From Candidatus Infernicultor aquiphilus (GTDB taxonomy: Bacteria; Atribacterota; Phoenicimicrobiia; Phoenicimicrobiales; Phoenicimicrobiaceae), in NCBI GenBank assembly GCA_001873345.1, contig MNYY01000051.1, positions 1 to 42,882 on the forward strand: a DNA stretch of 42,882 nucleotides, read 5' to 3'. This document shows positions 7,699 to 42,882 of the stretch, piece by piece. A model generated the notes under the pieces. That model was not told the origin of the DNA and made no database searches. It saw only the letters and a list, made by a program, of their open reading frames with translations. Position 1 is the first letter of the stretch. Every line of letters starts with the position of its first letter. Both the position numbers and the translations under genes were made by a program.

Positions 7699-7703
7699 AA
7701 AGG

Positions 7704-7733
7704 CTCATTACATATTACTTATTACTGTATTTT
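7704..7733 (+). repeat. Module M3 (ATTAC-rich degenerate heptamers), forward
   Basis: CTCATTACATATTACTTATTACTGTATTTT. A near-identical copy is at 26573-26604. Reverse-complement copies are at 10730-10772 and 14076-14117. Confidence 0.85.
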
Positions 7734-7736
7734 GAC

Positions 7737-7771
7737 GCGATATGCGATATGCGATATGCGATATGCGATAC
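7737..7771 (+). repeat. Module M2: heptamer tandem repeat (GCGATAT)x4 + GCGATAC
   Basis: Five contiguous 7-bp units ending 7 nt (ATG 7778) or 22 nt (TTG 7793) before the candidate hypB starts. Confidence 0.95.
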
Positions 7772-7777
7772 GAATAA

Positions 7778-8452
7778 ATGGAGGTAAATACATTGACCAA
7801 AGTAAGGGTTTTTACTAATATTTTGAAGGCAAATGAAAATATTGCTCAAAAAAATAGAGAAATTTTTAATAAGAATAAGGTATATACGATTAATTTAATG
7901 AGTTCACCTGGGTCTGGAAAGACCAGCCTATTAGAAAGGACTATAGATTCACTAAAGAATGAATTAAGGATTGCAGTTATAGAGGGCGATCTTCAAACTA
8001 CTAAAGATGCGGAGAGAATAGAAAAATATAATATCCCGGTGACTCAAATAAATACCGATGGAGCTTGTCATTTAGATGCTAATATGGTAGCTAGTGTATT
8101 AGATTCCTATAATTTTAAGGAAATAGATCTTTTTGTTATTGAAAATGTGGGCAATTTAGTCTGTCCAGCAGGATATGATTTAGGAGAAGAGGATAGAGTA
8201 GTGATGGTAAGTATTCCTGAAGGAGACGATAAACCAATAAAATACCCCTTGATATTCCATAATGCAAATGTATTAATAATAAATAAGATTGATCTATTAC
8301 CTTATACTAATTTTAATAGGTTAAAAGTTAAAGAAGATGCCTTAAATATAAATCCCAATTTAAAAATATTCGAAATTTCTTGTCAGACTGGGGAAGGCTT
8401 AGAAAATTGGTTTATCTGGTTAAAAGAGCAGGTAAGTAAAAAGAAGAGGTGA
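7778..8452 (+). CDS. hypB: Hydrogenase nickel incorporation GTPase HypB
   Basis: 224-aa ORF with P-loop SSPGSGKTSLL, ENVGNLVCPA and NKIDLL. GGAGG at 7780-7784 overlaps the ATG at 7778. The true start may therefore be the in-frame TTG at 7793. Confidence 0.9.
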   Translation: MEVNTLTKVRVFTNILKANENIAQKNREIFNKNKVYTINLMSSPGSGKTSLLERTIDSLKNELRIAVIEGDLQTTKDAERIEKYNIPVTQINTDGACHLDANMVASVLDSYNFKEIDLFVIENVGNLVCPAGYDLGEEDRVVMVSIPEGDDKPIKYPLIFHNANVLIINKIDLLPYTNFNRLKVKEDALNINPNLKIFEISCQTGEGLENWFIWLKEQVSKKKR

Positions 8453-10722: not shown

Positions 10723-10729
10723 CGTATAG

Positions 10730-10811
10730 AATACAGTGATAAGTAATGAGTAATGTGTGAATAGTGACAAGTTTCGGGTTACAGGTTACTTGTTACATAT
10801 TAAACATTACA
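10730..10811. repeat. Quasi-palindrome made of M3 reverse (10730-10772) and M3 forward (10786-10811)
   Basis: AATACAGTGATAAGTAATGAGTAATGTGTGAATAGTGACAAGT ... TTACTTGTTACATATTAAACATTACA. The arms are imperfectly complementary around centre TTCGGGTTACAGG. Confidence 0.8.
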
Positions 10812-10818
10812 TAGCTTA

Positions 10819-10865
10819 TTGGTTAATCGGTGAATTGGTAAATCGGTCAATTGGTGAATTGAATT
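10819..10865 (+). repeat. Module M1: octamer array (GGTNAATY)n, forward
   Basis: TTGGTTAATCGGTGAATTGGTAAATCGGTCAATTGGTGAATTGAATT. It runs into the hypC SD. Confidence 0.9.
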
Positions 10866-10878
10866 AGAGGTGAAGAAA

Positions 10879-11094: not shown

Positions 11095-12191
11095 AATATA
11101 TTGATGAGTATAGGGATAAAAGAATAGCTCAAAACATCTTACAAAAAATTAATATTATTTCCAAAAAAAAGGTAAATTTAATGGAAGTTTGTGGAACCCA
11201 CACGGTAGCTATATTCAGAAATGATATCAAAAAAATATTACCTACCAATATTAATCTTATTTCTGGGCCGGGTTGCCCAGTATGTGTTACTCCCGTTTCC
11301 CATATTGATGAGATAATTAGTTTATCCCGAAAAGAAGATTTTATTATAACTACTTTTGGAGATATGATCAGGATTCCAGGTTCTACTTCTACTTTAGAGA
11401 AAGAAAAAACTAATAGTGCAGACATTAGAATTGTTTATTCTACTTTAGATGCTTTAAAAATTGCCCAAAATAATCCTTCCCAAGAGGTTATTTTTATGGG
11501 GGTGGGTTTTGAGACAACTTCTCCTACTATAGCCAGTGCAATATTAAAAGCCCAAGAAGGTAAAATTAATAATTTTTCTGTTTTGAGTGTAGCCAAGATT
11601 ATGCCTCCAGTAATGAAAGCTTTATTAGAAAGTAAAGAGGTAAATATTGATGGGTTTATTTGCCCCGGACATGTAAGTGCCATTATTGGGAGTCAACCTT
11701 TTAATTTTATTGCTGCTCAGTATGGAGTTCCTTGTGTCATCTGCGGATTTGAACCATTAGATATTTTAGAAGGTATTTATATGCTTATTAATCAAATTGA
11801 AAATGATAAAGCAGAAGTGGAAATTCAATATAAACGCGTAGTTAAACCAGAAGGGAATAGGATTGCCCTAGAGAGAATTAATGAGGTATTTAAAGTGGTT
11901 GATTCTAATTGGAGAGGGATAGGCAATATCCACCATAGTGGTTTAGAGATAAAAGATAAATATAATCAGCATAATGCCAGAAGATTTAAAGTGGAAATAG
12001 AAGAAACTAAAGAACCAAGAGGATGTCGTTGTGGCGAAGTCTTAAGGGGAATAATTATTCCTCCTGAATGTCCTCTCTTTGGAGAGATTTGTACCCCTGA
12101 AGACCCCCAAGGTGCTTGTATGGTTTCCAGTGAAGGCACCTGTGCCGCCTATTATAAATACAGTAGGGGCAGACCTTGTGTCTGCCCGTAA
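11091..12191 (+). CDS. hypD: Hydrogenase maturation Fe-S protein HypD; last 9 codons and stop supplied by a REP
   Basis: 366-aa ORF. The TTG start overlaps the hypC stop (TTGA). MKYIDEYRD, CGTHT, GPGCPVCV and the C-terminal CxxxP region match HypD. The C-terminal SRGRPCVCP-stop is REP-encoded, identical to the tail of ORF 7261-7698. Confidence 0.9.
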   Translation: MKYIDEYRDKRIAQNILQKINIISKKKVNLMEVCGTHTVAIFRNDIKKILPTNINLISGPGCPVCVTPVSHIDEIISLSRKEDFIITTFGDMIRIPGSTSTLEKEKTNSADIRIVYSTLDALKIAQNNPSQEVIFMGVGFETTSPTIASAILKAQEGKINNFSVLSVAKIMPPVMKALLESKEVNIDGFICPGHVSAIIGSQPFNFIAAQYGVPCVICGFEPLDILEGIYMLINQIENDKAEVEIQYKRVVKPEGNRIALERINEVFKVVDSNWRGIGNIHHSGLEIKDKYNQHNARRFKVEIEETKEPRGCRCGEVLRGIIIPPECPLFGEICTPEDPQGACMVSSEGTCAAYYKYSRGRPCVCP

Positions 12192-12240
12192 TAAGGCAGA
12201 CCTTGTGTCTGCCCGTAAAAAGGTAGATCCTGTATCTACC
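12163..12240 (+). repeat. Three tandem REP-type hairpins (full REP, 5'-truncated REP, diverged variant)
   Basis: 12163-12188 is GTAGGGGCAGACCTTGTGTCTGCCCG. 12195-12215 is GGCAGACCTTGTGTCTGCCCG. 12222-12240 is GGTAGATCCTGTATCTACC, with two compensatory C:G to T:A stem changes. Confidence 0.9.
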
Positions 12241-12257: not shown

Positions 12258-12875
12258 ATGTTGTCCATGAACATTAAAAATAAGAAGTGTAATCGTCAGT
12301 CTATTCGTCTTCATGGATACAATTATTCCTATCCTGGAGCATATTTTATAACCATATGTACCCCAGAACAGAAAATGTTGTTAAAATTTAAATATGTGCA
12401 GGTAATGATTCATTCTGTTTGGAATAGTTTACCCGATAGATTTCCTTCTGTAAAATTAGATGAATTTGTAATAATGCCAAATCACGTGCATGCAATTTTG
12501 TGTATAAATATAGTAGGGGCAGACCTTGTGTCTGCCCGTAATAAGGCAGACCTTTTGTCTGCCCCACCGCTTAGTCGTATTATTCAAGCATTTAAATCAA
12601 TTACAACTTATAAATATATTTTAGGGGTGAAAATAAATAATTGGCCAATGTTCAATAAACGCCTATGGCAACGGAATTATTATGACCATATAATACGTAG
12701 CGAGGAATCGTTGAATTGCATTAGAGAATATATTATTAATAATCCAACTCGATGGGAATTTGATAAGGAAAATCCTCGGGGTAAAATAGATAAAAAAGAG
12801 GAAGATTTTTGGAAGGAAATACACTCTCAACCTAAAATTAGGGCAGACATAAAGTCTGCCCCTACAAGGCGTTAA
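12258..12875 (+). CDS. REP-associated tyrosine transposase (RAYT, IS200/IS605 Y1 HUH family)
   Basis: 205-aa ORF. A start at ATG 12267 is more likely, 9 nt after AGGAG. SIRLHGYNYSYPGAYFITICT, the HUH motif MPNHVHAIL (HVH at 12483-12491) and LWQRNYYDHIIRSEESL...YIINNP are family hallmarks. REP DNA lies inside the ORF and at its 3' end. Confidence 0.8.
   Translation: MLSMNIKNKKCNRQSIRLHGYNYSYPGAYFITICTPEQKMLLKFKYVQVMIHSVWNSLPDRFPSVKLDEFVIMPNHVHAILCINIVGADLVSARNKADLLSAPPLSRIIQAFKSITTYKYILGVKINNWPMFNKRLWQRNYYDHIIRSEESLNCIREYIINNPTRWEFDKENPRGKIDKKEEDFWKEIHSQPKIRADIKSAPTRR
12513..12565 (+). repeat. REP doublet inside the RAYT coding sequence
   Basis: 12503-12564 matches 12153-12214 at 60 of 62 positions. 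Here it is read in another frame, as VGADLVSARNKADLLSAP. Confidence 0.9.
12841..12865 (-). repeat. REP, inverted orientation, forming the RAYT 3' end
   Basis: GGGCAGACATAAAGTCTGCCCCTAC. The stem is identical to the REP stem but the loop differs. It encodes RADIKSAPT. Confidence 0.85.
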
Positions 12876-13935: not shown

Positions 13936-13973
13936 TCAATTAACCTATTCCCCAATTCACTAATTCACCAATT
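13936..13973 (-). repeat. Module M1 octamer array, reverse complement, starting 1 nt after the hypE stop
   Basis: TCAATTAACCTATTCCCCAATTCACTAATTCACCAATT is the complement of the AATTGG-type octamers. Confidence 0.9.
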
Positions 13974-14075: not shown

Positions 14076-14167
14076 AAATACAGTGATAGGTAATATGTAA
14101 TGAGTAATGAGTTAATGTTTTAAGTTTAAAAAAAACAGATTACTTTTCACATATTACAGATTACACG
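14076..14167. repeat. Quasi-palindrome made of M3 reverse (14076-14117) and M3-like forward (14136-14167)
   Basis: AAATACAGTGATAGGTAATATGTAATGAGTAATGAGTTAATG ... CAGATTACTTTTCACATATTACAGATTACACG. Confidence 0.75.
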
Positions 14168-14192: not shown

Positions 14193-14256
14193 CTAATTAA
14201 ACTAATTGGGTAATTGGCCAATAGGAGAATTGGTGAATTGATATATTGGTAAATTT
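14193..14256 (+). repeat. Module M1 octamer array, forward
   Basis: CTAATTAAACTAATTGGGTAATTGGCCAATAGGAGAATTGGTGAATTGATATATTGGTAAATTT. It ends 20 nt before ATG 14277. Confidence 0.9.
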
Positions 14257-14276: not shown

Positions 14277-14801
14277 ATGAAAGATAAAAAGGAAAGTGCT
14301 TATGTTAGATTAGCACGAGAGACAATTGAAAATTATATAAAATATGGAAATATAATTTCTCCTCCCCAAGATTTACCTGAAGAGATAATAAATCAAAAGG
14401 CTGGAGCATTTGTTTCTCTTAAAAAATATGGAAATTTAAGAGGATGTATCGGTACTTTTTTACCGACTGAAGAAAATATAGTTGCTGAGATTATCAGAAA
14501 TGCTATTAGTGCAGCTACTGGTGACCCTCGTTTCCCTCCAGTAACGATTTCTGAATTAAATGATTTAACTATTTCAGTTGATATTTTATCTCCTCCCGAA
14601 GAAGTTGAGGATATCTCCCAACTTAACCCCAAGAAATATGGGGTAATTGTAAGTAGCGGTTTTAAAAAAGGATTGCTATTGCCTGATTTAGAAGGTGTAG
14701 ATACAGTAGAGGAGCAGATTGATATTACTAAACGTAAAGCGGGTATTTATCCTGGTGAGAAAGTAAAATTGTATCGATTTGAAGTAAAAAGATATTATTA
14801 A
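14277..14801 (+). CDS. AMMECR1 domain protein (AmmeMemoRadiSam system protein A)
   Basis: [20 protein letters not shown] and DPRFPPV are AMMECR1 signatures. ATG 14277 is preferred because AAGGTGG lies upstream. The track start is GTG 14265. Confidence 0.85.
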
Positions 14802-14802
14802 A

Positions 14803-14863
14803 TTCGTATCTCGTATTTCGTGAATCGTATCTCGTAAATAAAATAGAATCCAGAATCCAGAAT
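14803..14863 (-). repeat. Module M2 reverse (14803-14838) followed by module M5 heptamers (14843-14863)
   Basis: TTCGTATCTCGTATTTCGTGAATCGTATCTCG is the reverse complement of 26607-26638 at 31 of 32 positions. ATAGAATCCAGAATCCAGAAT follows. Confidence 0.9.
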
Positions 14864-14889: not shown

Positions 14890-14961
14890 GTAGGGGCTCG
14901 ATTCATCGAGCCCGCTTGGGAAGTTACCAAACAATGCGGGTCGAATAAATTCGACCCCTAC
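14890..14961. repeat. GC-rich hairpin pair H2 + H3 bracketed by GTAG...CTAC
   Basis: GTAGGGGCTCGATTCATCGAGCCCGC ... GGGTCGAATAAATTCGACCCCTAC. Paralogues are at 32027-32083 and 36274-36330. H2 alone occurs at 30667-30692. Confidence 0.9.
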
Positions 14962-14984
14962 TCCAAAATTAGAGCTCCCAATGA

Positions 14985-15031
14985 CTAACGACTAATAGAC
15001 AGGCGAGACGCCTGTCCTACTAACGACTAAT
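14985..15031 (+). repeat. Hairpin H4 (GACAGGCG-AGA-CGCCTGTC) flanked by an 11-bp direct repeat TAACGACTAAT (module M4)
   Basis: CTAACGACTAAT-AGACAGGCGAGACGCCTGTCCTAC-TAACGACTAAT. H4 recurs at 30757-30781 and, inverted, at 42626-42650. Confidence 0.9.
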
Positions 15032-17161: not shown

Positions 17162-17311
17162 ATTAGTCGTTAGTGAATAGTATCTCGTATAATTAGCATA
17201 GAGCGTATAGCGTTTAGCTTACTTGTCACTTATTACACATTACGCAACTTACTCACAGACTGGCTAACTGATTTAATTGGAGAATTGGTTGATTGGCTAA
17301 TTGATAAATTT
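17162..17311. repeat. Composite spacer: M4 reverse, M2 reverse, M6, M3 forward, M12, M1 forward
   Basis: Modules in order: ATTAGTCGTTAGTGAATAG (17162-17180), TATCTCGTATA (17181-17191), GCATAGAGCGTATAGCGTTTAGC (17196-17218), TTACTTGTCACTTATTACACATTACGCAACTTACTCAC (17219-17256) and the octamer array (17273-17311). Confidence 0.85.
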
Positions 17312-18164: not shown

Positions 18165-18231
18165 ATAGCGGTTAGCGTTTAGCGGAACTGTATTTTGACG
18201 CGATACGCGATACGATATACTAACGACTAAT
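18165..18231 (+). repeat. Composite spacer: M6, M3 tail, M2 forward, M4 forward
   Basis: ATAGCGGTTAGCGTTTAGCGG, AACTGTATTTT, GACGCGATACGCGATACGATATAC and TAACGACTAAT, running into the GGGAGG SD. Confidence 0.85.
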
Positions 18232-19530: not shown

Positions 19531-19700
19531 TTACTTAGTTATCCGGTTAGCCAGTTACTTAGTTTGCCGGTTAATAGGTTTTAGGGCATAAGTTTCGAGT
19601 TTTAAGTTTTAAAGAGGAGTTTGGGTTGGATTCACCCAATCTGTCTGTTCCTTCTGTTATTCCTGCTGGCTAACCGGTAACTGGTAAACTGGCCAACTAA
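19531..19700. repeat. Inverted M12 arms (CCGGTTAGCCAGTTAC-type) around an 84-bp centre
   Basis: The left arm is 19531-19578 and the right arm is 19663-19700. They share CTGGCTAACCGG(A)TAACT in inverted orientation. Confidence 0.8.
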
Positions 19701-19703
19701 TAT

Positions 19704-19749
19704 AATTGGAGAATTGGAGAATTGGTCAATTGGTCAATTGGTCAATTGG
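19704..19749 (+). repeat. Module M1 octamer array: (AATTGGAG)x2 (AATTGGTC)x3 AATTGG
   Basis: Perfect 8-bp phasing. It ends 11 nt before ATG 19761. Confidence 0.95.
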
Positions 19750-19949: not shown

Positions 19950-20024
19950 TTAAAGAGAGATAAAAATATATTTTAGGATTTTTATTTATTAATTATTTAT
20001 AAGCTATAAAATTAAATTTAAAGC

Positions 20025-20053
20025 TTGATATCAAAAATATCTGATGATATAAT
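20025..20053 (+). promoter_or_regulatory. Sigma-70-type promoter upstream of rpsF (TTGATA-17-TATAAT)
   Basis: The -35 TTGATA is at 20025-20030, followed by an exact 17-bp spacer and the -10 TATAAT at 20048-20053. This leaves a leader of about 80 nt containing the hairpin CCTGAAG..TTTCAGG. Confidence 0.5.
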
Positions 20054-20137
20054 ATTAAATCAATTTAGGTTTTTAATTTCCTTGCTCCTGAAGAAATCTT
20101 TCAGGGGCTGATTAGACCAAAAGGAGGAGGTGAACAG

Positions 20138-20741: not shown

Positions 20742-20773
20742 GCAAATTAGTAAATTAGTATATAGTATAACAT

Positions 20774-20880
20774 TTGGTTAGATAGTTAATTGGTTACCTG
20801 GTTAGTTAGTTGATGAATTAAAATCAAACCAGCTAACCAGCTAGCTAGCTAGCTAACTAACTAACTAACTAACTAACTAA
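20774..20880. repeat. Palindromic GGTTAG/CTAACC-type arms ending in microsatellite (CTAG)x3 (CTAA)x7
   Basis: The left arm is 20774-20813, the loop is TGAATTAAAATCA and the right arm is 20827-20880. (CTAG)3 lies at 20841-20852 and (CTAA)7 at 20853-20880. Confidence 0.9.
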
Positions 20881-20920
20881 TTCTGCTTTAAGTTTAAAAT
20901 TTAAAAGAAGAGGTCTTTTA

Positions 20921-22459: not shown

Positions 22460-22507
22460 ATTAGTATATTGTATATCGTATATCAAAAAAATAATAATGT
22501 ATAATAC

Positions 22508-22578
22508 GTAGGGGCAGACCTTGTGTCTGCCCGTAATGCGTAATTAGTCCTACGGGCAGACACAAGGTCTGTCCCTAC
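22508..22578. repeat. REPIN: two REPs in inverted orientation
   Basis: GTAGGGGCAGACCTTGTGTCTGCCCG (22508-22533), a 19-nt spacer, then CGGGCAGACACAAGGTCTGTCCCTAC (22553-22578, one mismatch). The flanks are shared with the REPIN at 35577-35690. Confidence 0.9.
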
Positions 22579-22623
22579 GACTATTCACTATTCACTAATG
22601 ACTATTTAACATGGAGTTAAAAA

Positions 22624-23955: not shown

Positions 23956-23978
23956 AGATTTCATTGTTTATTTACTAA

Positions 23979-24007
23979 TTGACAGCTAACGAAAAATATA
24001 GTAACAT
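23979..24007 (+). promoter_or_regulatory. Possible promoter for the tRNA cluster (TTGACA-17-TAACAT)
   Basis: The -35 TTGACA is at 23979-23984, followed by a 17-bp spacer and the -10-like TAACAT at 24002-24007, about 40 nt before tRNA-Lys. Confidence 0.35.
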
Positions 24008-24048
24008 TTAGAAGCAAAAAAATTTTAAACTATAGTTATTATTTGTTG

Positions 24049-24121
24049 GGGCCGTTAGCTCAGTTGGTAGAGCATCTGACTCTTAATCAGGGGGTCGTGG
24101 GTTCGAAACCCGCACGGCCCA
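24049..24121 (+). tRNA. tRNA-Lys (anticodon CTT)
   Basis: Hand-folded cloverleaf with acceptor GGGCCGT/ACGGCCC, anticodon loop CTCTTAA and T-loop GGTTCGAAACC. No CCA is encoded. Confidence 0.9.
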
Positions 24122-24129
24122 TCGAAAAT

Positions 24130-24204
24130 GCCCCCATCGTCCAGGGGATAGGACACCGCCCTTTCACGGCGGCGACAGGGGTTCAAATCCCCTTGGGGGC
24201 ACCA
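24130..24204 (+). tRNA. tRNA-Glu (anticodon TTC)
   Basis: Acceptor GCCCCCA/TGGGGGC, anticodon stem CCGCC/GGCGG with loop CTTTCAC. CCA is encoded. Confidence 0.9.
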
Positions 24205-24230
24205 ATTAATTCATTACAAGATAAAAGAAT

Positions 24231-24306
24231 GGGCGGATAGCTCAGTTGGCAGAGCACCTGCTTCACATGTAGGGGGTCACAGGTTCAAGTCCTGTTCCGC
24301 CTACCA
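24231..24306 (+). tRNA. tRNA-Val (anticodon CAC)
   Basis: Acceptor GGGCGGA/TCCGCCT, anticodon loop TTCACAT and T-loop GGTTCAAGTCC. CCA is encoded. Confidence 0.88.
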
Positions 24307-24327
24307 TTTTTTTTAAATGGATATGAT

Positions 24328-24393
24328 GCCGGCGTAGCTCAATCGGAAGAGCAACGGAATCGTAATCCGTAGGTTGTCTGTTCAACTCAGATC
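24328..24393 (+). tRNA. tRNA-Thr (anticodon CGT)
   Basis: Acceptor GCCGGCG/CGCCGGC, anticodon stem ACGGA/TCCGT with loop ATCGTAA. CCA is encoded. Confidence 0.88.
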
Positions 24394-24426
24394 GCCGGCT
24401 CCATTTCTTAAAAGGCAAATAATCTA

Positions 24427-25311
24427 ATGAATAACCCCAAATTGACTTCTTTCCAAGAAGTTATAAGACTTCTTACCAAATATAATTTTAAATGTAAAAA
24501 AAGATTGGGGCAGAATTTTTTAATAGATCAAAACATCTTACAAATAATCATTAATTCTCTAAAATTGAATAAAGAAGATTGTATTTTAGAAATTGGTACC
24601 GGGATGGGTACTCTAACTTCTGCTTTATCCCCTTTAGTCAGACAAGTTATATCCATCGAAAAAGACAAGAAGTTAGATCCCCTTTTAAAAGAAAGTCTCT
24701 CTCCTTATAATAATATAGAAATAATATTCGAAGATATTATGGATGTTAATCTGATTAATTTTTTTGAGAAGAATAGAAAAAAGGGGATAAAAATTGAAAA
24801 AATAGTGGGCAATCTTCCTTATTATATCTCTCTTCCCTTAATAAGACAGATTCTTGAACTTAATAAATATTTAAAATTTGCTGTCTTTTTGGTGCAGAAA
24901 GAAGTAGGGGAAAGGCTGATGGCCAAAGCAGGGGATAAAAATTATGGTATAATATCCCTGATTGCTCAATATTATTCACAACCTCAAAAAGTACATACTG
25001 TCTCCTCTACAGTATTTTATCCCCAACCTAAAGTAAATTCAATGATAATTAGATTGGATATTTATGAAAAACTACCAGTACAAGTAGGCAATAAAAAGCT
25101 ATTTTTAAATATTATCAGAGCTTCTTTTCAACAAAGGAGAAAAAGATTGATTAACTCTCTATCCAACTATTTTCAGAGAGAGATCGCTAAACCTGCAATA
25201 GAAAGTATATTAAACGAGATAGGTATTGATAAAAATCGTCGAGGAGAAACCTTATCGATAAAGGAATTTGCTAAATTAAGTAAGGCGATGGAAGAGAAAC
25301 TTTGTAAGTAA
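24427..25311 (+). CDS. rsmA: 16S rRNA (adenine1518/1519-N6)-dimethyltransferase
   Basis: LGQNFLIDQNIL, SAM motif ILEIGTGMGTLT, GNLPYYIS and FYPQPKVNS. Confidence 0.92.
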   Translation: MNNPKLTSFQEVIRLLTKYNFKCKKRLGQNFLIDQNILQIIINSLKLNKEDCILEIGTGMGTLTSALSPLVRQVISIEKDKKLDPLLKESLSPYNNIEIIFEDIMDVNLINFFEKNRKKGIKIEKIVGNLPYYISLPLIRQILELNKYLKFAVFLVQKEVGERLMAKAGDKNYGIISLIAQYYSQPQKVHTVSSTVFYPQPKVNSMIIRLDIYEKLPVQVGNKKLFLNIIRASFQQRRKRLINSLSNYFQREIAKPAIESILNEIGIDKNRRGETLSIKEFAKLSKAMEEKLCK

Positions 25312-25586: not shown

Positions 25587-25635
25587 AAGGTAAGGTATAG
25601 GAATTATTAAAATTCCTATACCTTACCTTAAAAAT
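25581..25635. other. Perfect 25-bp inverted repeat with a 5-nt loop (possible bidirectional terminator or processing hairpin)
   Basis: ATTTTTAAGGTAAGGTATAGGAATT-ATTAA-AATTCCTATACCTTACCTTAAAAAT. It is unique in this window. Confidence 0.6.
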
Positions 25636-25997: not shown

Positions 25998-26345
25998 GTG
26001 GAAATTACAGATGTTAGACTAAGAAGGATAGAGACAGAAGGAAAATTAAGGGCCTATGTATCAATTACCTTTGATGATTCTTTTGTAGTACATGATTTAC
26101 GAGTTATTGATGGCACTAAGGGTATGTTTGTGGCAATGCCCAGTAAGAGACTTCCTAATGGAGATCATAAGGATATTGCTCATCCTATAAATACCGAGAT
26201 TAGAGAAAAAATACAGAATGCTGTTTTAGAAGTTTATCAAAAAGAAGTAGAAGAGGCTCCCCAAAAAAAAGAAGTGGAGACTGAAGTAACTGAAGTAGAA
26301 GAAAAAGTAGAAGATACTGAAAATAAAGAAGAAGATCAATTCTAA
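25998..26345 (+). CDS. spoVG: Septation/regulatory protein SpoVG with an acidic C-terminal tail
   Basis: GTG start. [51 protein letters not shown] is the canonical SpoVG sequence. The C-terminal roughly 35 aa are rich in E, K and V. Confidence 0.92.
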
Positions 26346-26374
26346 ATAAGTAAAAAGACTAAAAAATCTCGGTT

Positions 26375-26449
26375 TGGGGTGTAGCCAAGTGGTAAGGCAC
26401 GGGAATTTGGATCCCGCATTCGAAGGTTCGAACCCTTCCACCCCAGCCA
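26375..26449 (+). tRNA. tRNA-Gln (anticodon TTG)
   Basis: Acceptor TGGGGTG/CACCCCA, anticodon stem CGGGA/TCCCG with loop ATTTGGA, and T-loop GGTTCGAACCC. CCA is encoded. Confidence 0.88.
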
Positions 26450-26470
26450 TATAACTCAGTTATTCATTAG

Positions 26471-26641
26471 TCAGCCAGTTATCCGGTTTGCCGGTAAGTT
26501 TTGTAATGTGTAATATGTGACAAGTAACCTGTGATAAGTACCTGTTTTTATAATTTGGGAAATTTATCTTATTACTCATTACATATTACTTGTTACTGTA
26601 TTTTAGCGAGATACGATTCACGAGATACGAGATACGAAATT
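26471..26641. repeat. Composite spacer: M12, M3 reverse, M3 forward, M2 forward
   Basis: Modules in order: TCAGCCAGTTATCCGGTTTGCCGGTAAG (26471-26498), TGTAATGTGTAATATGTGACAAGTAACCTGTGATAAGTACCTG (26502-26544), CTTATTACTCATTACATATTACTTGTTACTGTATTTT (26568-26604) and AGCGAGATACGATTCACGAGATACGAGATACGAAATT (26605-26641). Confidence 0.9.
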
Positions 26642-29063: not shown

Positions 29064-29091
29064 CACGAGATACGATATACAATATACGAAA
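29064..29091 (+). repeat. Module M2 forward (CACGAGATACGATATACAATATACGAAA)
   Basis: Degenerate ATACGA heptamers abutting the rplY SD. Confidence 0.8.
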
Positions 29092-29106: not shown

Positions 29107-29832
29107 ATGGAGACATCGAAATTAGAAGTAGAATTAAGAAATGGAACTGGGAAAGAAATTAATAAGAAATTTAGGAGAAAAGGTGATATTCCTGGAATAC
29201 TATATTCTCCTCATGATAAAGAAAATATACTGTTAAAAGTTAAAAGAGAAAATTTATTAAGATTATTAGCTAGCAAAACACACCAACTCATTGATTTAGA
29301 AATAGATGATGGGAATAAAAAAGTTAGCCGATTAGTTGTGATTAAAGACTTTCAGTATAATTCTTTAAAGAAGCAGATAGTTCATGTTGATTTTTATGGA
29401 GTAACTCTAAAAGAGAAATTAACCATGGAAATTAATATTGAATTAATAGGCCAACCTATCGGAGCAATAGATGGGGGAATTTTAAATGTGGAATTACGAA
29501 AAGTTGAAATAGAATGTTTACCTTCTAAAGTACCTGAGAGTTTAAAAGTAGATCTAAGTAATCTGAAGATAGGAGATAATATTACAGTTGGAGAAATACA
29601 GCTTCCTGAAGGAGTTGAAGTATTAACTAAATCAGATAGAATTGTTGCTGCCTTAGTTCCTCCTGCTAAAGAAGAAGAGGTAGTTAAAGAAGTAGTAGAA
29701 GGGGAAGCAGTAACCGAAGAAAAAGAAGTAACTAAAGGAGAAGAAAAAGTAGAAGTAAAGACAGAAACTCCTTCTTCTGCACCAAAAAAAGAATCTAAAA
29801 AAGAATCTAAAAAAGAATCTAAAAAAGAATAG
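29107..29832 (+). CDS. rplY: 50S ribosomal protein L25 / general stress protein Ctc, with a low-complexity K/E tail
   Basis: LEVELRNGTGKEINKKFRRKGDIPGILY and a Ctc-type second domain. The tail ends KKESKKESKKESKKE. ATG 29107 is preferred, 8 nt after GGAGG. The track ATG at 29092 overlaps the SD. Confidence 0.85.
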   Translation: METSKLEVELRNGTGKEINKKFRRKGDIPGILYSPHDKENILLKVKRENLLRLLASKTHQLIDLEIDDGNKKVSRLVVIKDFQYNSLKKQIVHVDFYGVTLKEKLTMEINIELIGQPIGAIDGGILNVELRKVEIECLPSKVPESLKVDLSNLKIGDNITVGEIQLPEGVEVLTKSDRIVAALVPPAKEEEVVKEVVEGEAVTEEKEVTKGEEKVEVKTETPSSAPKKESKKESKKESKKE

Positions 29833-29857: not shown

Positions 29858-30442
29858 TTGAAGATGGTAGTTGGTTTGGGTAATCCTGGTTTGCAATATG
29901 AATTCAGTCGACACAATATAGGGTTTAGAATAATTGATAACTTAGCTCTAAATATAGAAATAGAATTTAAAAGGGTGAAATCTTATGATTCATTAGTTTC
30001 CCGAGGGAAACTAATGAATCATAAATTAATATTGGTAAAACCGCAGACTTATATGAATTTAAGCGGGAAATCAGTAAGCAAGATTGTTTCCTACTACCGG
30101 ATATCCTTTCCAGATTTATTGATAGTTTATGATGATCTGAATTTAGAATTAGGTCAGATCAGGATCAGGAAAAGAGGGAGTGCTGGCGGTCATAAGGGAG
30201 TGGAGTCGATTATTCAATATTTAAATAGTGAAGATATACCTCGTTTAAGAATAGGGATTGGTAAACCTTCAATAAATTCTAATTTTGATTATGCCTCTTA
30301 TGTCCTTTCTAATTTTAATAATAACGAAAAGGATAAAATAAGTGAAGTAATACAACTATCTACTGAGGCAATAAAGACAGTAATAGAAGATGGCCTTGAA
30401 AAAGCGATGAGAAAATACAATAGAAAATTGGAGCTATCTTAA
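29858..30442 (+). CDS. pth: Peptidyl-tRNA hydrolase
   Basis: VVGLGNPGLQYEFSRHNIGF, PQTYMNLSG and GSAGGHKG. The start is TTG 29858 or ATG 29864. Confidence 0.9.
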   Translation: MKMVVGLGNPGLQYEFSRHNIGFRIIDNLALNIEIEFKRVKSYDSLVSRGKLMNHKLILVKPQTYMNLSGKSVSKIVSYYRISFPDLLIVYDDLNLELGQIRIRKRGSAGGHKGVESIIQYLNSEDIPRLRIGIGKPSINSNFDYASYVLSNFNNNEKDKISEVIQLSTEAIKTVIEDGLEKAMRKYNRKLELS

Positions 30443-30497: not shown

Positions 30498-30523
30498 GTG
30501 GGCACGATGCATCGTGCCCCTAC
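30498..30523. repeat. Hairpin H5: perfect 20-nt palindrome GGGCACGATGCATCGTGCCC with a 3' CTAC
   Basis: GTGGGCACGATGCATCGTGCCCCTAC. This is the only copy in the window. Confidence 0.85.
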
Positions 30524-30560: not shown

Positions 30561-30625
30561 TTATCTCGTATCTCGTAAAGAAAATAGAAGTCAGAATTCA
30601 GAAGTCAGGATCCAGAAGTCAGGAG
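30561..30625 (-). repeat. Module M2 reverse (30561-30580) followed by M5 heptamer array (30586-30625)
   Basis: TTATCTCGTATCTCGTAAAG, then AGAAGTC AGAATTC AGAAGTC AGGATCC AGAAGTC AGGAG. Confidence 0.9.
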
Positions 30626-30666: not shown

Positions 30667-30692
30667 GTAGGGGCTTGATTTATCAAGCCCGG
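30667..30692 (+). repeat. Hairpin H2 (GTAGGGGCTTGATTTATCAAGCCCGG)
   Basis: 9-bp stem GGGCTTGAT/ATCAAGCCC. The same hairpin occurs at 32027 and 36274. Confidence 0.9.
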
Positions 30693-30710
30693 TAAAAACT
30701 TAATAAAGAG

Positions 30711-30781
30711 ATTGCCACGCTCTGATAAATCAGAGCTCGCAATGACTGACGACTAATAGACAGGCGAGACGCCTGTCCTAC
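30711..30781 (+). repeat. Hairpin module M9 (ATTGCCACGC..GCTCGCAAT) + M4 + hairpin H4
   Basis: ATTGCCACGCTCTGATAAATCAGAGCTCGCAATGAC TGACGACTAAT AGACAGGCGAGACGCCTGTCCTAC. The inverted copy is at 42626-42696. Confidence 0.9.
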
Positions 30782-30790
30782 GAATTTTTT

Positions 30791-30944
30791 GGTAAATTGG
30801 TAAATTGGAGAATCGGTAAATTGGTAAATTGGAGAATCGGTAAATTGGTCAATTGGAGAATCGGTAAATTGGTCAATTGGAGAATCGGTAAATTGGTCAA
30901 TTGGAGAATTGGTAAATTGGTTAATTGGTTAATTGATAAATCGG
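30791..30944 (+). repeat. Module M1: five tandem 24-bp units (three octamers each, GGTAAATT-GGTMAATT-GGAGAATC) plus a degenerate tail
   Basis: Units lie at 30791, 30815, 30839, 30863 and 30887, and the tail is 30911-30944. The array overlaps the GGAGG SD (30943-30947) of pfkA. Confidence 0.95.
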
Positions 30945-31926: not shown

Positions 31927-31974
31927 TTCGTATCTCGTAGATAAGACAGAAGACAGAAGTCAGAAGTCAGAATA
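31927..31974 (-). repeat. Module M2 reverse (31927-31939) followed by M5 heptamers (31947-31974)
   Basis: TTCGTATCTCGTA, then CAGAAGA CAGAAGT CAGAAGT CAGAATA. Confidence 0.9.
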
Positions 31975-32026: not shown

Positions 32027-32083
32027 GTAGGGGCTTGATTTATCAAGCCCGCAATACTCGGGTCGGATAAATCCGCCCCCTAC
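32027..32083. repeat. Hairpin pair H2 + H3 bracketed by GTAG...CTAC
   Basis: GTAGGGGCTTGATTTATCAAGCCCGCAATACTCGGGTCGGATAAATCCGCCCCCTAC. It is preceded by M6 (AGAGCAGTTAGCGTTTGGG, 32006-32024). Confidence 0.9.
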
Positions 32084-35535: not shown

Positions 35536-35552
35536 GTATCGCGTATCGCGTG
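35536..35552 (-). repeat. Module M2 reverse (GTATCGCGTATCGCGTG)
   Basis: It is the reverse complement of the forward copy GACGCGATACGCGATAC at 18197-18213. It lies 13 nt after the mfd stop. Confidence 0.85.
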
Positions 35553-35576
35553 AAGAAAATAATAATGTACAATATG

Positions 35577-35690
35577 TAGGGGCAGACCTTGTGTCTGCCC
35601 GAAATGAGTACATTCAAAACAATAGTTTATACAAAAAAATTTTTAATTATGGTTTTTAGTCCTACGGGCAGACACAAGGTCTGCCCCTAC
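35577..35690. repeat. REPIN: inverted REP pair with a 63-nt A/T-rich spacer
   Basis: GTAGGGGCAGACCTTGTGTCTGCCCG-type REP at 35577-35601 and CGGGCAGACACAAGGTCTGCCCCTAC at 35665-35690. The conserved flanks AATAATAATGTAYAATAY and TAGTCCTAC...GAYTATT are shared with the REPIN at 22508-22578. Confidence 0.9.
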
Positions 35691-35736
35691 GATTATTTGA
35701 CAAATTCACTAACGACTAATAAATACGGAGGAGAAA

Positions 35737-36141: not shown

Positions 36142-36244
36142 AAATATTATTAATTTGAATTAGAAATCTATTTAAATCTAAAAAAATTAATTTAAGCTGT
36201 ATTAAGATATATGATATAATAAATTTGTATTTAGTGAATATAGC

Positions 36245-36392
36245 ATATGGCGGGTAGAGTTTAGCGTGTAGAGGTAGGGGCTTGATTTATCAAGCCCGCA
36301 GAACTCGGGTCGGATAAATCCGACCCCTACATCAAAAACAATACTTTATTGACTTAGCCTATACGCTAAACGCTGTACGCTATACGCTAACC
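36245..36392. repeat. Nested palindrome: M6 forward, hairpin pair H2+H3 (36274-36330), M6 reverse
   Basis: ATATGGCGGGTAGAGTTTAGCGTGTAGAG, then GTAGGGGCTTGATTTATCAAGCCCGCAGAACTCGGGTCGGATAAATCCGACCCCTAC, then TACGCTAAACGCTGTACGCTATACGCTAACC. Confidence 0.9.
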
Positions 36393-36408: not shown

Positions 36409-36476
36409 AATTGGCAAATTGGCAAATTGGTAAATTGGCAAATTGGTGCATTAGTGCATTGGTAAATTGGAGAATT
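36409..36476 (+). repeat. Module M1 octamer array, forward (8.5 units)
   Basis: AATTGGCA AATTGGCA AATTGGTA AATTGGCA AATTGGTG CATTAGTG CATTGGTA AATTGGAG AATT. The last GGAG serves as the SD for ATG 36482. Confidence 0.95.
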
Positions 36477-36481
36477 ATTAC

Positions 36482-40745: not shown

Positions 40746-42491
40746 GTGCCAAAGAAGAAGTGGAACTATATATTATTAACAGGATTTTTAACTTTGATAT
40801 TTATCTGGGTTGGTTTAAATATGGTTGAGGCAGAAAATCAAGGAAAGATAACTGCTATTGTAGTAGAGGGAAATGAAAATATTTCTAAAGATTTAATAAT
40901 TTCTCAAATTACCTCTAATCTGGGAGATGTTTTTTCTAAAGAAAGCATTGAAAAGGATGTAAAAGCGATATATGAGTTAGGTTATTTTAAAGATGTAAGA
41001 GTAAAATTAGAATCTTTTCGAGAAGGGTATAAAGTAGTATTTGTAGTAGTTGAGAATTTAGCGGTAAAAGAAATTAATATTACCGGTAATACGGTAGTCT
41101 CTAAGGAAGAGATGAGAGAAGTAATGATTTTACAAGAAGGACAGATTTTTAGCCAAAAAATATTAAAAAATGATCTTACTCGTATTTCCCAACTCTATAA
41201 AGACCGGGGGTATCTTTTAATTAATATTAAAGATATTAATTTTGATGAAGAAGGAAAATTATGGATAAATATTTCTGAGGGCCGACTGGAAAAGATAGTA
41301 ATTGAAGGTAATGATAAGACCAAAGAAAAGGTAATTACCCGAGAAATTAATATTAAACCTGGAGATCTCTTTGATTTTGAGAAAGTAAAAAAATCTTTAC
41401 AAAAAATCTATAACTTAGGCTATTTTGAAGATGTAACTATGAAATTAGAACCAGGAAGTGAAGAGGATGTAGTAGTTTTAGTAATCAAAGTAATTGAAAA
41501 AAATACCGGGAAATTTGGAATTGGAGCAGGATATAATTCTGAAGAGGGTCTTATGGGATTTGCCAGTATAGAAGAAATGAATCTTTTTGGGGGAGGTCAG
41601 AAAGTAGGAGCCAAATTAGAGTTAGGGGGTCGAACAACTTATAAAGTATCCTTTTTAGAACCGTGGTTAGCTAATACACCTACTTCTTTGGGTTTTGATG
41701 TATATGATACTACAACAAACCAAGAGGATAAAGAGGGTGAAGAAGTTATTGCTGAGTATGATGAAATAAAATTAGGAGGTAGACTTATTTTTGGAAGGAA
41801 GATAAGTGATTCAATTAATTTAGGGTTGGAATTAAAGACTGAAAGAGTGAATTATGATCTGATTTCCGGAGCTTTGCCTGAAGATACTAATGAAGGCTTA
41901 ACTAATAGCCTTATGCCAACTTTTACTTATGACACTCGTGACAATGTATTTGATCCTACTTCCGGTTGGTATAGTAGTCTTTCTATAGAAAAAGCAGGTG
42001 GATTTTTAAGAGGAGATTATAATTTTACTAAATATAATTTAACTCTTAGAACTTATCTTTCTACGGACTTTTTTAAAGATATATTTAATATTGGTGGATT
42101 TAAAAAGATAACTGATAATTTAAGCAAAGGAGTATTGGCTTTTAGAGCTATGGGTGGTATGGCAGATACTGATTTGCCTTCTTTTGCAGAATATCAAGTA
42201 GGAGGAATGAATACGATAAGAGGTTATGATTCAGGTGAATTTTCCGGGGATAAATCTTTGGTATTTAATGCAGAGTATAGATTTCCTTTAGCTGAAAATT
42301 TTCAAGCTGTACTTTTTGTAGATTGGGGCCAAACTTGGGATATTGAAGAAAGCATTGATATTGCTGATTTAAAGTTTGGTCGAGGAGTAGGTGTTCGTTT
42401 TGATACACCTATTGGACCAATCAGATTGGACTATGGTATTAATGAAGAAGGAATTGGAAAAACTTACTTTAGTATAGGACATACTTTTTAG
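40746..42491 (+). CDS. bamA: Outer membrane protein assembly factor BamA (Omp85 family)
   Basis: GTG start 9 nt after AGGAGG. It has a signal/TM segment and repeated POTRA-like units (I..I.VEGN....E.I, Y...GY). The C-terminal barrel carries VGGMNTIRGY and ends in an aromatic residue (HTF). Confidence 0.9.
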   Translation: MPKKKWNYILLTGFLTLIFIWVGLNMVEAENQGKITAIVVEGNENISKDLIISQITSNLGDVFSKESIEKDVKAIYELGYFKDVRVKLESFREGYKVVFVVVENLAVKEINITGNTVVSKEEMREVMILQEGQIFSQKILKNDLTRISQLYKDRGYLLINIKDINFDEEGKLWINISEGRLEKIVIEGNDKTKEKVITREINIKPGDLFDFEKVKKSLQKIYNLGYFEDVTMKLEPGSEEDVVVLVIKVIEKNTGKFGIGAGYNSEEGLMGFASIEEMNLFGGGQKVGAKLELGGRTTYKVSFLEPWLANTPTSLGFDVYDTTTNQEDKEGEEVIAEYDEIKLGGRLIFGRKISDSINLGLELKTERVNYDLISGALPEDTNEGLTNSLMPTFTYDTRDNVFDPTSGWYSSLSIEKAGGFLRGDYNFTKYNLTLRTYLSTDFFKDIFNIGGFKKITDNLSKGVLAFRAMGGMADTDLPSFAEYQVGGMNTIRGYDSGEFSGDKSLVFNAEYRFPLAENFQAVLFVDWGQTWDIEESIDIADLKFGRGVGVRFDTPIGPIRLDYGINEEGIGKTYFSIGHTF

Positions 42492-42496
42492 GAGAT

Positions 42497-42616
42497 AATT
42501 GACCAATTCGCCAATTCTCCGATTAACCAATTAGTCAATTCACCAATTGACCAATTAATCAATTTACCAATTGACCAATTAATCAATTTACCAATTGACC
42601 AATTCACCAATTAACC
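42497..42616 (-). repeat. Module M1 octamer array, reverse complement: 15 phased octamers (AATTNNCC)
   Basis: It starts 6 nt after the bamA stop. The internal 24-bp period (AATTTACC AATTGACC AATTAATC) mirrors the pfkA-upstream array. Confidence 0.95.
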
Positions 42617-42625
42617 AAAAAATTC

Positions 42626-42696
42626 GTAGGACAGGTGTCTCGCCTGTCTATTAGTCGTTAGTCATTGCGAGCTTTGATTTATCGAAGCGTGGCAAT
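42626..42696 (-). repeat. Inverted copy of H4 + M4 + M9 composite
   Basis: GTAGGACAGGTGTCTCGCCTGTCTA TTAGTCGTTA GTCATTGCGAGCTTTGATTTATCGAAGCGTGGCAAT. It is the reverse complement of 30711-30781 with a few substitutions. Confidence 0.9.
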
Positions 42697-42882
42697 CTCT
42701 TTATTCAACTAAAAAATTAAAGCAAAAAGCGAAAAATTATAATTTAAAATTTAAAACTTTTTCTCTTGTATATCGTATAATATATTGAGTATTACGATTA
42801 TTAGAGTACAGGATATGTAGAAGTCGGATTTATCCAACAAAAGACGCAATATGCAATACTATATAAAAAATTTAAGGAGGAG

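Follow-up and report, generated by a model that had tools for sequence, protein, structure and literature searches.

Several kinds of dispersed intergenic repeat are known from bacteria. Modular mosaic intergenic repeats include the bacterial interspersed mosaic elements (BIMEs) of Escherichia coli and the BOX elements of Streptococcus pneumoniae, and Correia, RUP and Nezha are examples of miniature inverted-repeat transposable elements (MITEs). Small dispersed repeats are reportedly nested in arrays of STRR (short tandemly repeated repetitive) sequences. In filamentous cyanobacteria the STRR heptamers form hairpins near hoxW as well as between hupS and hupL, and transcript stability or translational coupling have been suggested as roles for these hairpins (PMC2670836). 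In Beggiatoaceae, some cyanobacteria and Bacteroidetes, forward TAACTGA heptamers stand shortly before start codons (MacGregor 2015, PMC4679880). For repetitive extragenic palindromic (REP) sequences tagged with GTAG, head-to-head and tail-to-tail dimers, intragenic copies and REPtrons have been described (Di Nocera 2013, PMC3733652), as has the organisation of REP dimers as REPINs (Bertels and Rainey 2011, PMC3116915). Here, we analyse the intergenic spacers of a 42,882-nucleotide stretch of Candidatus Infernicultor aquiphilus, a member of the Atribacterota (contig MNYY01000051.1 of assembly GCA_001873345.1; the whole stretch is called the window below), in which GTAG-tagged REPs, a gene for a REP-associated tyrosine transposase (RAYT) and longer hairpins with arms of 7-8 bp tandem units are found together. 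We consider it probable that palindromic repeat families, non-coding and for the most part selfish, make up these spacers as mosaics of REPs and array-armed hairpins nested at one another's centres, in what were formerly short gaps between stop codons and ribosome-binding sites. In the literature on Atribacterota we found no description of such repeats.

When comparing the window with these systems, we observe that it shares with REP/REPIN and RAYT systems the GTAG directly 5' of a GC-rich stem, the inverted doublets with variable spacers, the compensatory subfamilies, some intragenic copies and a single RAYT gene flanked by REPs, whereas it differs in its Atribacterota host, in doublets that lie within outer tandem-repeat arms and in a RAYT open reading frame (ORF) that carries an in-frame REP pair. 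As in BIMEs and BOX elements, mosaics of modules with preferred order and orientation and variable internal copy number fill the spacers between co-transcribed genes, but here the modules are mostly tandem arrays of 7-8 bp units, and the mosaic as a whole shows mirror symmetry and nesting. Likewise, MITEs are non-coding palindromic units of 80-150 bp that lie in intergenic regions and whose presence varies at orthologous sites, as is the case for the M13 and M3 elements described below; in contrast to MITEs, the arms of these elements have an internal period instead of being unique terminal inverted repeats, and neither a target-site duplication nor a partner transposase was identified for them. 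The likeness to STRR sequences lies in intergenic tandem heptamers that pair into intercistronic hairpins, even in hydrogenase clusters, in embedded small hairpins, and in tandem units of 5-11 nt that are above chance in the intergenic space and vary in copy number between strains. The window differs from them in its several concentric families of fixed polarity, its embedded GTAG REPs and its host, which is no heterocystous cyanobacterium, and its units are unlike those that we take to be the cyanobacterial STRR1-3 units. Finally, the TAACTGA repeats are also forward direct heptamers a few nucleotides before start codons with a patchy phylogenetic distribution, and the units of the M12 family of the window are TAACTGG, TAACCGG and once TAACTGA; the described repeats, however, consist of one dominant heptamer with one indirect repeat in 170 sets (PMC4679880), whereas the window has many families with reverse partners. 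An earlier note on this DNA, made from the sequence alone, had not recognised its repeats as a described system, which was overstated given the GTAG REP doublets and the RAYT gene in the window and the heptamers described as STRR (PMC2670836) and in Beggiatoaceae (PMC4679880). The locus is an unusually elaborate example of known selfish bacterial repeat DNA, of the REP/RAYT type combined with STRR-like hairpins, and not a mechanism new in kind; what is notable is its multi-family concentric architecture and the degree to which operons are inflated.

Period-7/8 arrays are concentrated in the intergenic space

We found that arrays with a period of 7 or 8 bp, as called with Tandem Repeats Finder (TRF), occupy 1035 of the 5602 intergenic bases of the window (18.5%) as opposed to 120 of its 37280 coding bases (0.32%), whereas shuffled intergenic sequence (20 shuffles) contains about 10 such bases (~0.2%). 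The vocabulary of modules that the earlier note had proposed to be shared across spacers is present. Its lists of forward and reverse M1, M2 and M4 arrays also proved accurate, the unit and the orientation being found at every listed position, and both TRF and the printed spacers agree with its statement that modules are absent from 1-7660 and 23956-26450, the first REP copy beginning at 7670 in the end of an ORF. At least eight module families can be distinguished, each with reverse-complement arms, and their units combine a conserved core of 5-6 nt with two variable positions in regular phase. The octamer of the M1 arrays is AATTGGNN. The forward M1, M2 and M4 arrays end 5-25 nt 5' of start codons, just upstream of the Shine-Dalgarno sequence.

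GTAG-tagged REPs and a RAYT gene

The GC-rich hairpins at the spacer centres are GTAG-tagged REPs of the textbook type, arranged in inverted doublets. Using a published definition, which asks for GTAG or GTGG at 0-2 nt on the 5' side of a basal stem of 7-20 bp that is fully paired and has at least three G/C among its first four bases, with a loop of 2-5 nt (10.1101/279083), we find 16 strict matches in the 43-kb window, 10 on the plus and 6 on the minus strand, with stems of 7-9 bp and loops of 2-5 nt. The copies are spread over eight different spacers, with four others in ORF ends or within the RAYT ORF, and further REPs occur downstream of the window and in related species. Compensatory stem changes distinguish the subfamilies, which are REP-A (GTAGGGGCAGACCTTGTGTCTGCCC, with five identical copies), REP-B (GTAGGGGCTTGATTTATCAAGCCC), REP-B' (GTAGGGGTCGGATTTATCCGACCC), REP-C (GTAGGACAGGCGTCTCGCCTGTC, read directly from the printed spacers) and REP-E (GTAGGGGCACGATGCATCGTGCCC on the minus strand). 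Most REPs form inverted doublets with the GTAG tags outward, in which the two copies are separated by 15 nt (22508-22579), 63 nt (35576-35690) or 7 nt (36274-36330) and which show recurring flanks, although the linker families are only loosely defined. The region 22505-22582, which contains the first of these, is foldable as a single 29-bp stem with a free energy (dG) of -62.1 kcal/mol and a z-score of -14.6. Across the REPs the polarity is GTAG-hairpin at the left and hairpin-CTAC at the right, matching that of the arrays. In two genes the annotated C-terminus is repeat-derived, as the REP-A at 12163-12191 provides the final codons of hypD and that at 7670-7694 (plus strand) forms the 3' end of the ORF at 7261-7698. 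A terminator scan of the window gave no terminator-like sites on the sense strand at REP doublets or array hairpins, and the only sense-strand matches that touch REPs, at 12180 and 12530, result from pairing between the neighbouring halves of two direct REP copies and have only 5 T in 8 after them.

The RAYT gene, on which the earlier note was silent although it lies within the window, encodes a protein with the Pfam domain Y1_Tnp (PF01797), and its homologues carry the names RayT (JGI) or REP-associated tyrosine transposase. Upon comparison with known structures, the best PDB match is 4ER8, the E. coli TnpA-REP, which is weak (E=0.002) but in which the HUH and C-terminal motifs are aligned. 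Residues H76, H78, Y158 and N162 are invariant across 13 aligned homologues. Y158 aligns to Y115 of TnpA-REP, which we take to be the catalytic tyrosine. N162 aligns to N119, which has been described as essential. Copies of REP-A stand on both sides of the gene, at 12163-12215 upstream and at 12841-12865 (minus strand) at its 3' end, and the ORF itself holds an in-frame REP pair at 12510-12567, just past the HUH motif, that encodes VGADLVSARNKADLLSAP. RAYT homologues of other phyla have a variable REP-like peptide insert at this place as well (VGADLVSAPPTD, GEHKVRPY, VGADLCVCP), and from these alignments the loop after the HUH motif looks like a family-wide landing site for REPs. By analogy with described systems, the RAYT presumably mobilises REPs in trans, acting on single-stranded hairpin DNA. 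No RAYT gene was found at the hypD/hypE junction of the relative L125.

We also considered the M4 arrays as in-phase extensions of the CTAC tail of REPs, which was dropped because the register varies between spacers. Downstream of the window, at L129 13139-13465, six to seven GTAG REPs of four subfamilies share a 327-bp spacer in a BIME-like arrangement, and AGGAACC/AGGAGTC heptamers are apparently inserted into a copy of REP-C.

Array-armed palindromic elements

Sequence comparison between spacers indicates that the 7-8 bp modules are the arms of dispersed palindromic elements that appear to have been copied as whole units. The earlier note had described five long quasi-palindromes, such structures often having GC-rich centres, and an inverted-repeat search of the window shows genuine inverted arms in all five. 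They also fold far better than dinucleotide shuffles: four of the five have z-scores between -3.8 and -7.6, and the spacer that contains the fifth, at 19531-19700, has one of -2.7. The M3 element at 10730-10811 folds into helices of 5-6 bp with a 2x2 internal loop every 7 nt, and several M3 copies have AAATACAG and CTGTATTT at their boundaries; automated extraction by termini was too noisy, and hand-picked copies were used instead. The hypF/hypC spacer of the window and the M16/DUF951 spacer of L126, which are not orthologous, share the M3 loop AAGTTTCGGGTTRCAG. Copies of M13 have TGGTTAG-type arms, the conserved loop TTGATGAATTAAWATCAA and variant units in the same order; they are located at rpsR/DUF2232 in the window, at mreC/M16, M16/DUF951 and rplI/dnaB in L125, and at mreB/mreC, DUF2232/rplI and tRNA/glmU in L126. 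Because elements with conserved loops thus occur at non-orthologous spacers in related species, we infer that array-armed elements move, or are gained and lost, as units. Within the window, the composite block at 30700-30790 and the reverse complement of that at 42617-42700 are about 94% identical, as estimated by eye.

In three spacers we observe two concentric pairs of arms, with the inner element lying within ~15% of the outer midpoint. These are the M3 element at 14076-14167 inside an M1 arm pair, the REP doublet inside the palindrome at 36241-36389 and the small hairpin inside the M12 palindrome.

Orientation of the arrays

Next, we investigated the orientation of the arrays. TRF arrays in 15 Atribacterota loci were typed by family and strand and scored by the half of the spacer in which they lie, which is a crude classification. 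We find that 83 arrays are consistent with a reverse arm at the left and a forward arm at the right and 29 are not (p=3e-7), so that the non-random orientation reported in the earlier note extends beyond the window. Upon partitioning by family, the ratio of consistent to inconsistent arrays is 22:3 for M1, 28:7 for M2 and 7:1 for M4. The earlier note had read this orientation as anchored to genes and had proposed minus-strand genes as the place to look for a flip. In '--' and '-+' spacers the rule does hold, with 17 arrays consistent and 3 not (minus-strand and divergent examples are L012 4076-4387 and a small minus-strand ORF near 5080), but this cannot separate gene anchoring from the polarity of palindromes. 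The rule is identical to reverse-left/forward-right in all four gene configurations and is therefore uninformative on any coupling to genes or to the replication strand. Because either strand of a palindromic unit gives the same reading, all of its copies share one polarity; the orientation follows from this polarity and no link to genes is needed.

Variation between strains and species

The same locus, spacers included, is present at 99.6-99.9% identity in at least eight independent assemblies from ENA, JGI and NCBI. Across eight conspecific assemblies, spacer indels are nearly all whole units of 4, 8, 24 or ~71 bp, with indels of 8 and 24 bp in M1, of 4 bp in (CTAA)n, including the (CTAA)n part of M13, and of ~71 bp in the heptamers at 14787-14821. 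The exceptions lie near 25593-25610, where a spacer free of modules has indels of 1-5 bp, and at 14128, where an A-run changes by 1 bp. Since these indels between strains are nearly all whole repeat units, slippage is ongoing.

When examining more distant genomes, we find that in L128, a distant relative with conserved gene order and an MreC that is 48% identical, the spacers measure 48 bp at hypF/hypC, 98 bp at mreB/mreC, 21 bp at mreC/M16 and 16 bp at M16/DUF951, versus 156, 166, 158 and 233 bp in the window. Spacers so much shorter in a distant relative indicate that those of the window were inflated in its own lineage, and they bear out the earlier remark that modules split tight operons at hypF/hypC and mreB/mreC. 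In the rplI/dnaB spacer the outer modules are kept in three species, with reverse M2 past the stop codon and M4 before the start codon, and the centre differs, as the window has a REP-A doublet there, L125 an M13 element and L126 a REP-B doublet; the presence of elements at orthologous spacers thus varies between species. An alignment of orthologous spacers, as the earlier note had suggested, was made for hypE/AMMECR1 between the window and L125, in which the outer M1 arms and the M3 core align and the rest has diverged.

A further genome, L127 (JGI 3300030616, MreC 66% identical), has spacers of 224-269 bp at the same junctions with almost no modules and is free of REPs, a single M13-like palindrome being noticed at rpsR/DUF2232. 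The length of the spacers is thus to some extent independent of their repeat content.

The module-free spacers of the window include those at 25312-25997, 19951-20137 and 23956-24048. The best matches to the promoter consensus (25410, 20025, 23979 and 21915) all lie in module-free spacers, with sigma-70 matches of 12/12 at 25410 and 11/12 at 20025; promoter-like counts are at most about 2 standard deviations above shuffles, and the best matches are a weak hint. The spacer at 25312-25997 also contains two strong terminator-like hairpins, at 25553-25580 and 25579-25637. The module-free spacers look like true regulatory regions that the repeats have avoided, and it fits this picture that insertion is tolerated mainly in non-regulatory, co-transcribed gaps.

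A proposed origin of the spacers

The nested insertion of palindromic, MITE-like units was one of three roles put forward in the earlier note, and it is the one we favour, on the basis of conserved-loop elements at non-orthologous spacers and of inner elements near the centres of outer ones. The spacers would be built of two layers. The first would consist of GTAG-tagged REP hairpins, mostly in REPIN- or BIME-like inverted doublets, which by analogy would be mobilised in trans by the RAYT of the window. The second would consist of longer hairpins (M1, M2, M3, M4, M6, M12 and M13) whose arms are degenerate 7-8 bp tandem units; these elements would be copied between spacers as whole units, after which their arms could lengthen or shorten by replication slippage. 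New elements would land preferentially near the centre of existing palindromes, so that older arms would be displaced towards the edges of the spacer, up to the stop codon on one side and the Shine-Dalgarno sequence on the other. Fixed polarity, nesting and the later loss of one arm could together produce the mirrored, seemingly gene-anchored grammar without any link to genes. Read-through polycistronic transcripts would then carry long, periodically interrupted stem-loops between cistrons as a side effect, with the repeats themselves perhaps close to neutral for the host, and we suggest that stems of 5-6 bp helices interrupted every 7-8 nt could let such long palindromes persist.

Several observations weigh against this proposal. 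The left/right rule is violated by 29 of 112 arrays, and asymmetric spacers, such as those with reverse M2 at the left and M4 at the right or with the one-sided composite at 30700-30790, call for arm loss or orientation-specific insertion. The preference of inner elements for the centre rests on three nested cases. Within the species, the eight assemblies show changes in unit number and no insertion polymorphism of whole REPs or hairpins, so that the mobility of the elements is deduced from the comparison between species. For the array-armed elements we found no target-site duplication, no defined insertion boundary and no clean pair of empty and filled sites, and their cognate mobilising enzyme was not found in the sequence examined. 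The 7-8 bp periodicity of the arms is left unaccounted for, and a functional role of the RNA could coexist with selfish spread.

The findings document a REP/RAYT system in Atribacterota, a phylum that is abundant in the subsurface but of which very few members are in culture, and a case of extreme operon inflation by nested hairpin repeats. Palindromes of fixed polarity that insert near each other's centres would give a simple account of a grammar that seems aware of genes, and the same may apply to the STRR hairpins of cyanobacteria and to like arrays of other phyla. In practical terms, the repeats fragment metagenome assemblies and give rise to false ORF ends and peptides, VGADLVSAR being one example, and the variation in unit number offers strain markers.

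Alternative explanations

We next weighed the alternatives to selfish, nested palindromes. The mirrored arrays could be selected at the RNA level, with intercistronic stem-loops setting mRNA processing, stability and translational coupling, or with forward units in 5' and reverse units in 3' untranslated regions (UTRs) serving as sites for an RNA-binding protein or for pairing of 5' and 3' ends, or with a combination of these, which would add a new layer of gene regulation if true; we regard this as unlikely. As the arrays occupy the gap between stop codon and Shine-Dalgarno sequence, operon transcripts would include them, and their stems are helices of 5-6 bp with 2x2 internal loops each 7-8 nt. 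Two-armed spacers and elements fold with z-scores of -2.7 to -14.6 (-2.7 to -11.5 for whole two-armed spacers), whereas one-armed spacers have z-scores near 0, and similar roles have been put forward both for the STRR hairpins of cyanobacterial hup operons (PMC2670836) and for the TAACTGA repeats (PMC4679880). Furthermore, in most spacers folding is more favourable for the sense than for the antisense strand, as in 10723-10878 with -33.9 versus -15.6 kcal/mol. However, module-free control spacers show the same sense bias, which is expected from GC skew and a C-to-T bias on the coding, presumably leading, strand; the comparison of sense and antisense folding was consequently rejected as a test of RNA-level selection, as it does not discriminate. 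Four transcription units, hypCDE, rSAM-mreB, L25-pth and tamB-bamA, carry the same module forward at the 5' end and reversed at the 3' end, but four of about seven scorable units is near chance for three to four module types. Chimeric arm pairs bind as well as native ones (M3, -19.5 native versus -23.3 chimeric; M13, -38.6 versus -40.3 kcal/mol), which shows no copy-specific co-evolution. The content of orthologous spacers also turns over fast between species and is missing from L127 and L128, and the REPs have no T-runs after them on the sense strand.

A bolder form of this idea is a genome-wide post-transcriptional code, in which forward units in 5' UTRs and their complements in 3' UTRs bracket cistrons as pairing partners or multivalent protein sites and direct mRNA processing, stability and localisation, with mobile hairpins spreading the code; we hold this to be improbable. 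It could be especially relevant in Atribacterota, given the intracytoplasmic membrane around the nucleoid that has been reported for a cultured member of the phylum.

The arrays could also have arisen de novo, spacer by spacer and without any transposition, through slippage together with inverted duplication templated by hairpins (template switching), the common vocabulary reflecting a mutational preference for certain 7-8-mers. Slippage is directly seen, arrays of AATTGGNN occur in at least 12 phyla, and in a large viral collection the AATTGG octamer gives 17 matches and four control octamers of the same composition give 7, 7, 17 and 20, the control having been run on this collection and not on the genome collection scanned for AATTGGNN. 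Nevertheless, copies in different spacers and species share non-repetitive loops and the order of variant units, and two composite blocks share the ~94% identity given above, neither of which independent slippage would give, and we consider a purely local origin improbable for this reason.

At the DNA level, the modules could serve the host as phased sites bound by a protein, nucleoid-associated or of another DNA-binding kind, or as cruciform insulators that organise the chromosome or its supercoiling. A role in chromosome organisation or supercoiling has been proposed for BIMEs, with binding of integration host factor (IHF) and gyrase reported in E. coli. The regular phasing of units with a conserved 5-6 nt core and two variable positions, and the supply of many spacers by few families, would suit such a role. 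We identified no candidate protein, however, the 8-bp phase mismatches the helical repeat of DNA, strains vary freely in copy number and the modules are missing from relatives; the evidence for the copying of whole elements is also accounted for with no host function, and we judge this very improbable. Finally, an assembly artefact of low-complexity sequence, about which the earlier note had worried, is hardly conceivable: arrays do often lie at contig ends in the genome-collection scan, where assembly is evidently disturbed, but the spacer architecture is identical in independent MEGAHIT, SPAdes, JGI and NCBI assemblies of different samples, differing in whole repeat units, and is present in related species too.

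Related arrays in other phyla

A scan with (AATTGGNN)x4, using one genome per species, returned at least 118 stretches in at least 12 phyla. Among the matches listed are genomes of Bacteroidota, Chloroflexota, Cyanobacteriota, Acidobacteriota, Planctomycetota, Nitrospirota, Ignavibacteria, Omnitrophota, Cloacimonadota and Patescibacteria, several of them with 60-70% G+C. Many of the matches are intergenic hairpins in which a forward array, a loop and a reverse array follow each other, for example L025 806-1061, L032 2825-2993, L041 1263-1317 and L120 54-186. By a crude ORF-based score, the AATTGG-core arrays of other phyla are mostly of opposite polarity to those of Atribacterota (75 versus 22 among the matches listed), and strict forward/reverse pairs number 4 forward-then-reverse versus 1 reverse-then-forward, too few to settle polarity. 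We rejected AATTGGNN as a specially conserved cross-phylum motif, given that control octamers are about as common in the viral collection; there is probably nothing special about the octamer as such, and we treat the cross-phylum matches as generic minisatellites of 8 bp, which are widespread in general. In the Anaerolineales metagenome-assembled genome JALUWE01 (L027 1610-1760 and 2665-2868), a 46-bp hairpin, ACATCCTGAGCGGAGGGTGGACGAAGTCCACTCGTAGTCGAAGGAT, occurs repeatedly inside direct (GGGTAATT)n arrays and forms a higher-order repeat of ~90 bp. This hairpin resembles the cyanobacterial small dispersed repeats in heptamer arrays and is not a canonical REP, because its GTAG is 3' of the stem.

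Gene content and coordinates of the features

The window has a G+C content of 32%, all of its genes are on the plus strand and its GC skew is strongly positive. Its MreC protein shows 100% identity to an NCBI entry of Candidatus Infernicultor aquiphilus. Based on Pfam, it begins with an fdh/formate-transporter block, hypB, hypF, hypC, hypD, the Y1_Tnp ORF, hypE, AMMECR1 and a radical-SAM gene, continues with mreB, mreC, an M16 peptidase gene, rpsF, rpsR, DUF2232, rplI, dnaB and four tRNAs, and ends with ksgA, spoVG, a tRNA, glmU, prs, L25, pth, pfk, mfd, mazG, tamB and bamA. An Rfam scan of the window at the gathering score matched the five tRNAs only and no spacer element. The coordinates of the repeat features and of the RAYT gene are collected in Table 1.

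Table 1. Repeat features and RAYT gene of the window, with positions counted from its first nucleotide.
Feature	Position	Strand	Description
RAYT gene	12258-12875	+	REP-associated tyrosine transposase (Y1/HUH), between hypD and hypE
REP-A direct pair	12163-12215	+	GTAGGGGCAGACCTTGTGTCTGCCC then GGCAGACCTTGTGTCTGCCCG; TRF period 27; next hairpin 12221-12240
REP-A variant	12841-12865	-	3' end of RAYT ORF; inverted partner 12513-12537, within/around the gene
REP-A inverted doublet, REPIN-like	22508-22579		rplI/dnaB spacer; 29-nt arms, 97%
REP-A inverted doublet	35576-35690		mfd/mazG spacer; 26-nt arms, 100%
REP-B/REP-B' inverted doublet	14890-14961		stems differ by compensatory changes
REP-B/REP-B' inverted doublet	32027-32082		pfk/mfd spacer
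REP-B, single copy	30667-30690	+	GTAATGA-type heptamers directly before
REP-E	30498-30523	-	
M3 palindromic element	10730-10811		GTAATGA / TTACATA heptamer arms, loop AAGTTTCGGGTTACAG; z -4.6
M3 palindromic element	14076-14167		inside M1 arm pair 13936-13973 / 14193-14256; z -4.8; orthologous copy in L125
M3 palindromic element	26502-26604		terminus CTGTATTTT; z -3.8
M12 palindrome	19531-19703		arms CCGGTTAGCCAGTTAC and GGCTAACCGGTAACTGG; encloses small hairpin 19621-19643
M13 palindromic element	20768-20885		TGGTTAG-type arm, loop TTGATGAATTAAAATCAA, CTAACCA/CTAA arm; z -6.6
Nested palindrome	36241-36389		AGCGTTT-type arm, REP-B/REP-B' doublet 36274-36330, CTAAACG/CTATACG arm; dG -62.1, z -7.6
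Composite block	30700-30790	+	hairpin GCCACGCTCTGATAAATCAGAGC, CTAACGA units, REP-C 30758-30781 (hairpin-CTAC); abuts M1 array
Composite block, reversed	42617-42700	-	REP-C 42626-42649; beside reverse M1 array past bamA stop
Partial composite block, third copy	14975-15031	+	REP-C 14997-15020, flanked by CTAACGA units (M4)
M1 array	30789-30944	+	19 octamers (AATTGGNN), 24-bp super-period, just upstream of pfk Shine-Dalgarno; 24-bp strain differences
Forward M1 array	10819-10865	+	before hypC
Further forward M1 arrays	14193-14256, 17273-17311, 19704-19749, 36409-36476	+	
Reverse M1 array	42497-42618	-	15 octamers, begins 5 nt past bamA stop codon
Reverse M1 arm	13936-13973	-	directly after hypE stop; pairs with 14193-14256
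Forward M2 array	7737-7771	+	(GCGATAT)x5
Further forward M2 arrays	18197-18220, 26605-26641, 29064-29091	+	
Left-hand composite after stop codon	14803-14863	-	reverse M2 (TATCTCG)n, AAATAAAAT, AGAATCC units (M5)
Left-hand composite (reverse M2 / M5), recurrences	30561-30624, 31927-31972		
Reverse M2 without rest of composite	17181-17191, 35536-35552	-	
Forward M4 array	22579-22607	+	CTATTCA / CTAATGA, before dnaB
Further forward M4 arrays	15020-15031, 18221-18231, 35705-35720	+	
Reverse M4	17162-17180	-	

Two genes of the window contain repeats of their own. In pth, at 29983-30024, a perfect palindrome of 20+20 nt with a 2-nt loop lies in frame and covers residues 42-56; the region aligns gap-free to what we take to be a variable region of E. 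coli Pth, so it presumably represents no insertion in length. At the 3' end of the L25 gene, at 29785-29830, a tail rich in lysine and glutamate is encoded by a 12-bp repeat that lies in frame, (AAAAAAGAATCT)x3.8, and strains differ there by one 12-bp unit. In the assembly L002, homology to the window stops near 29817, where the L25 ORF runs on as a 662-aa fusion and other genes follow downstream.

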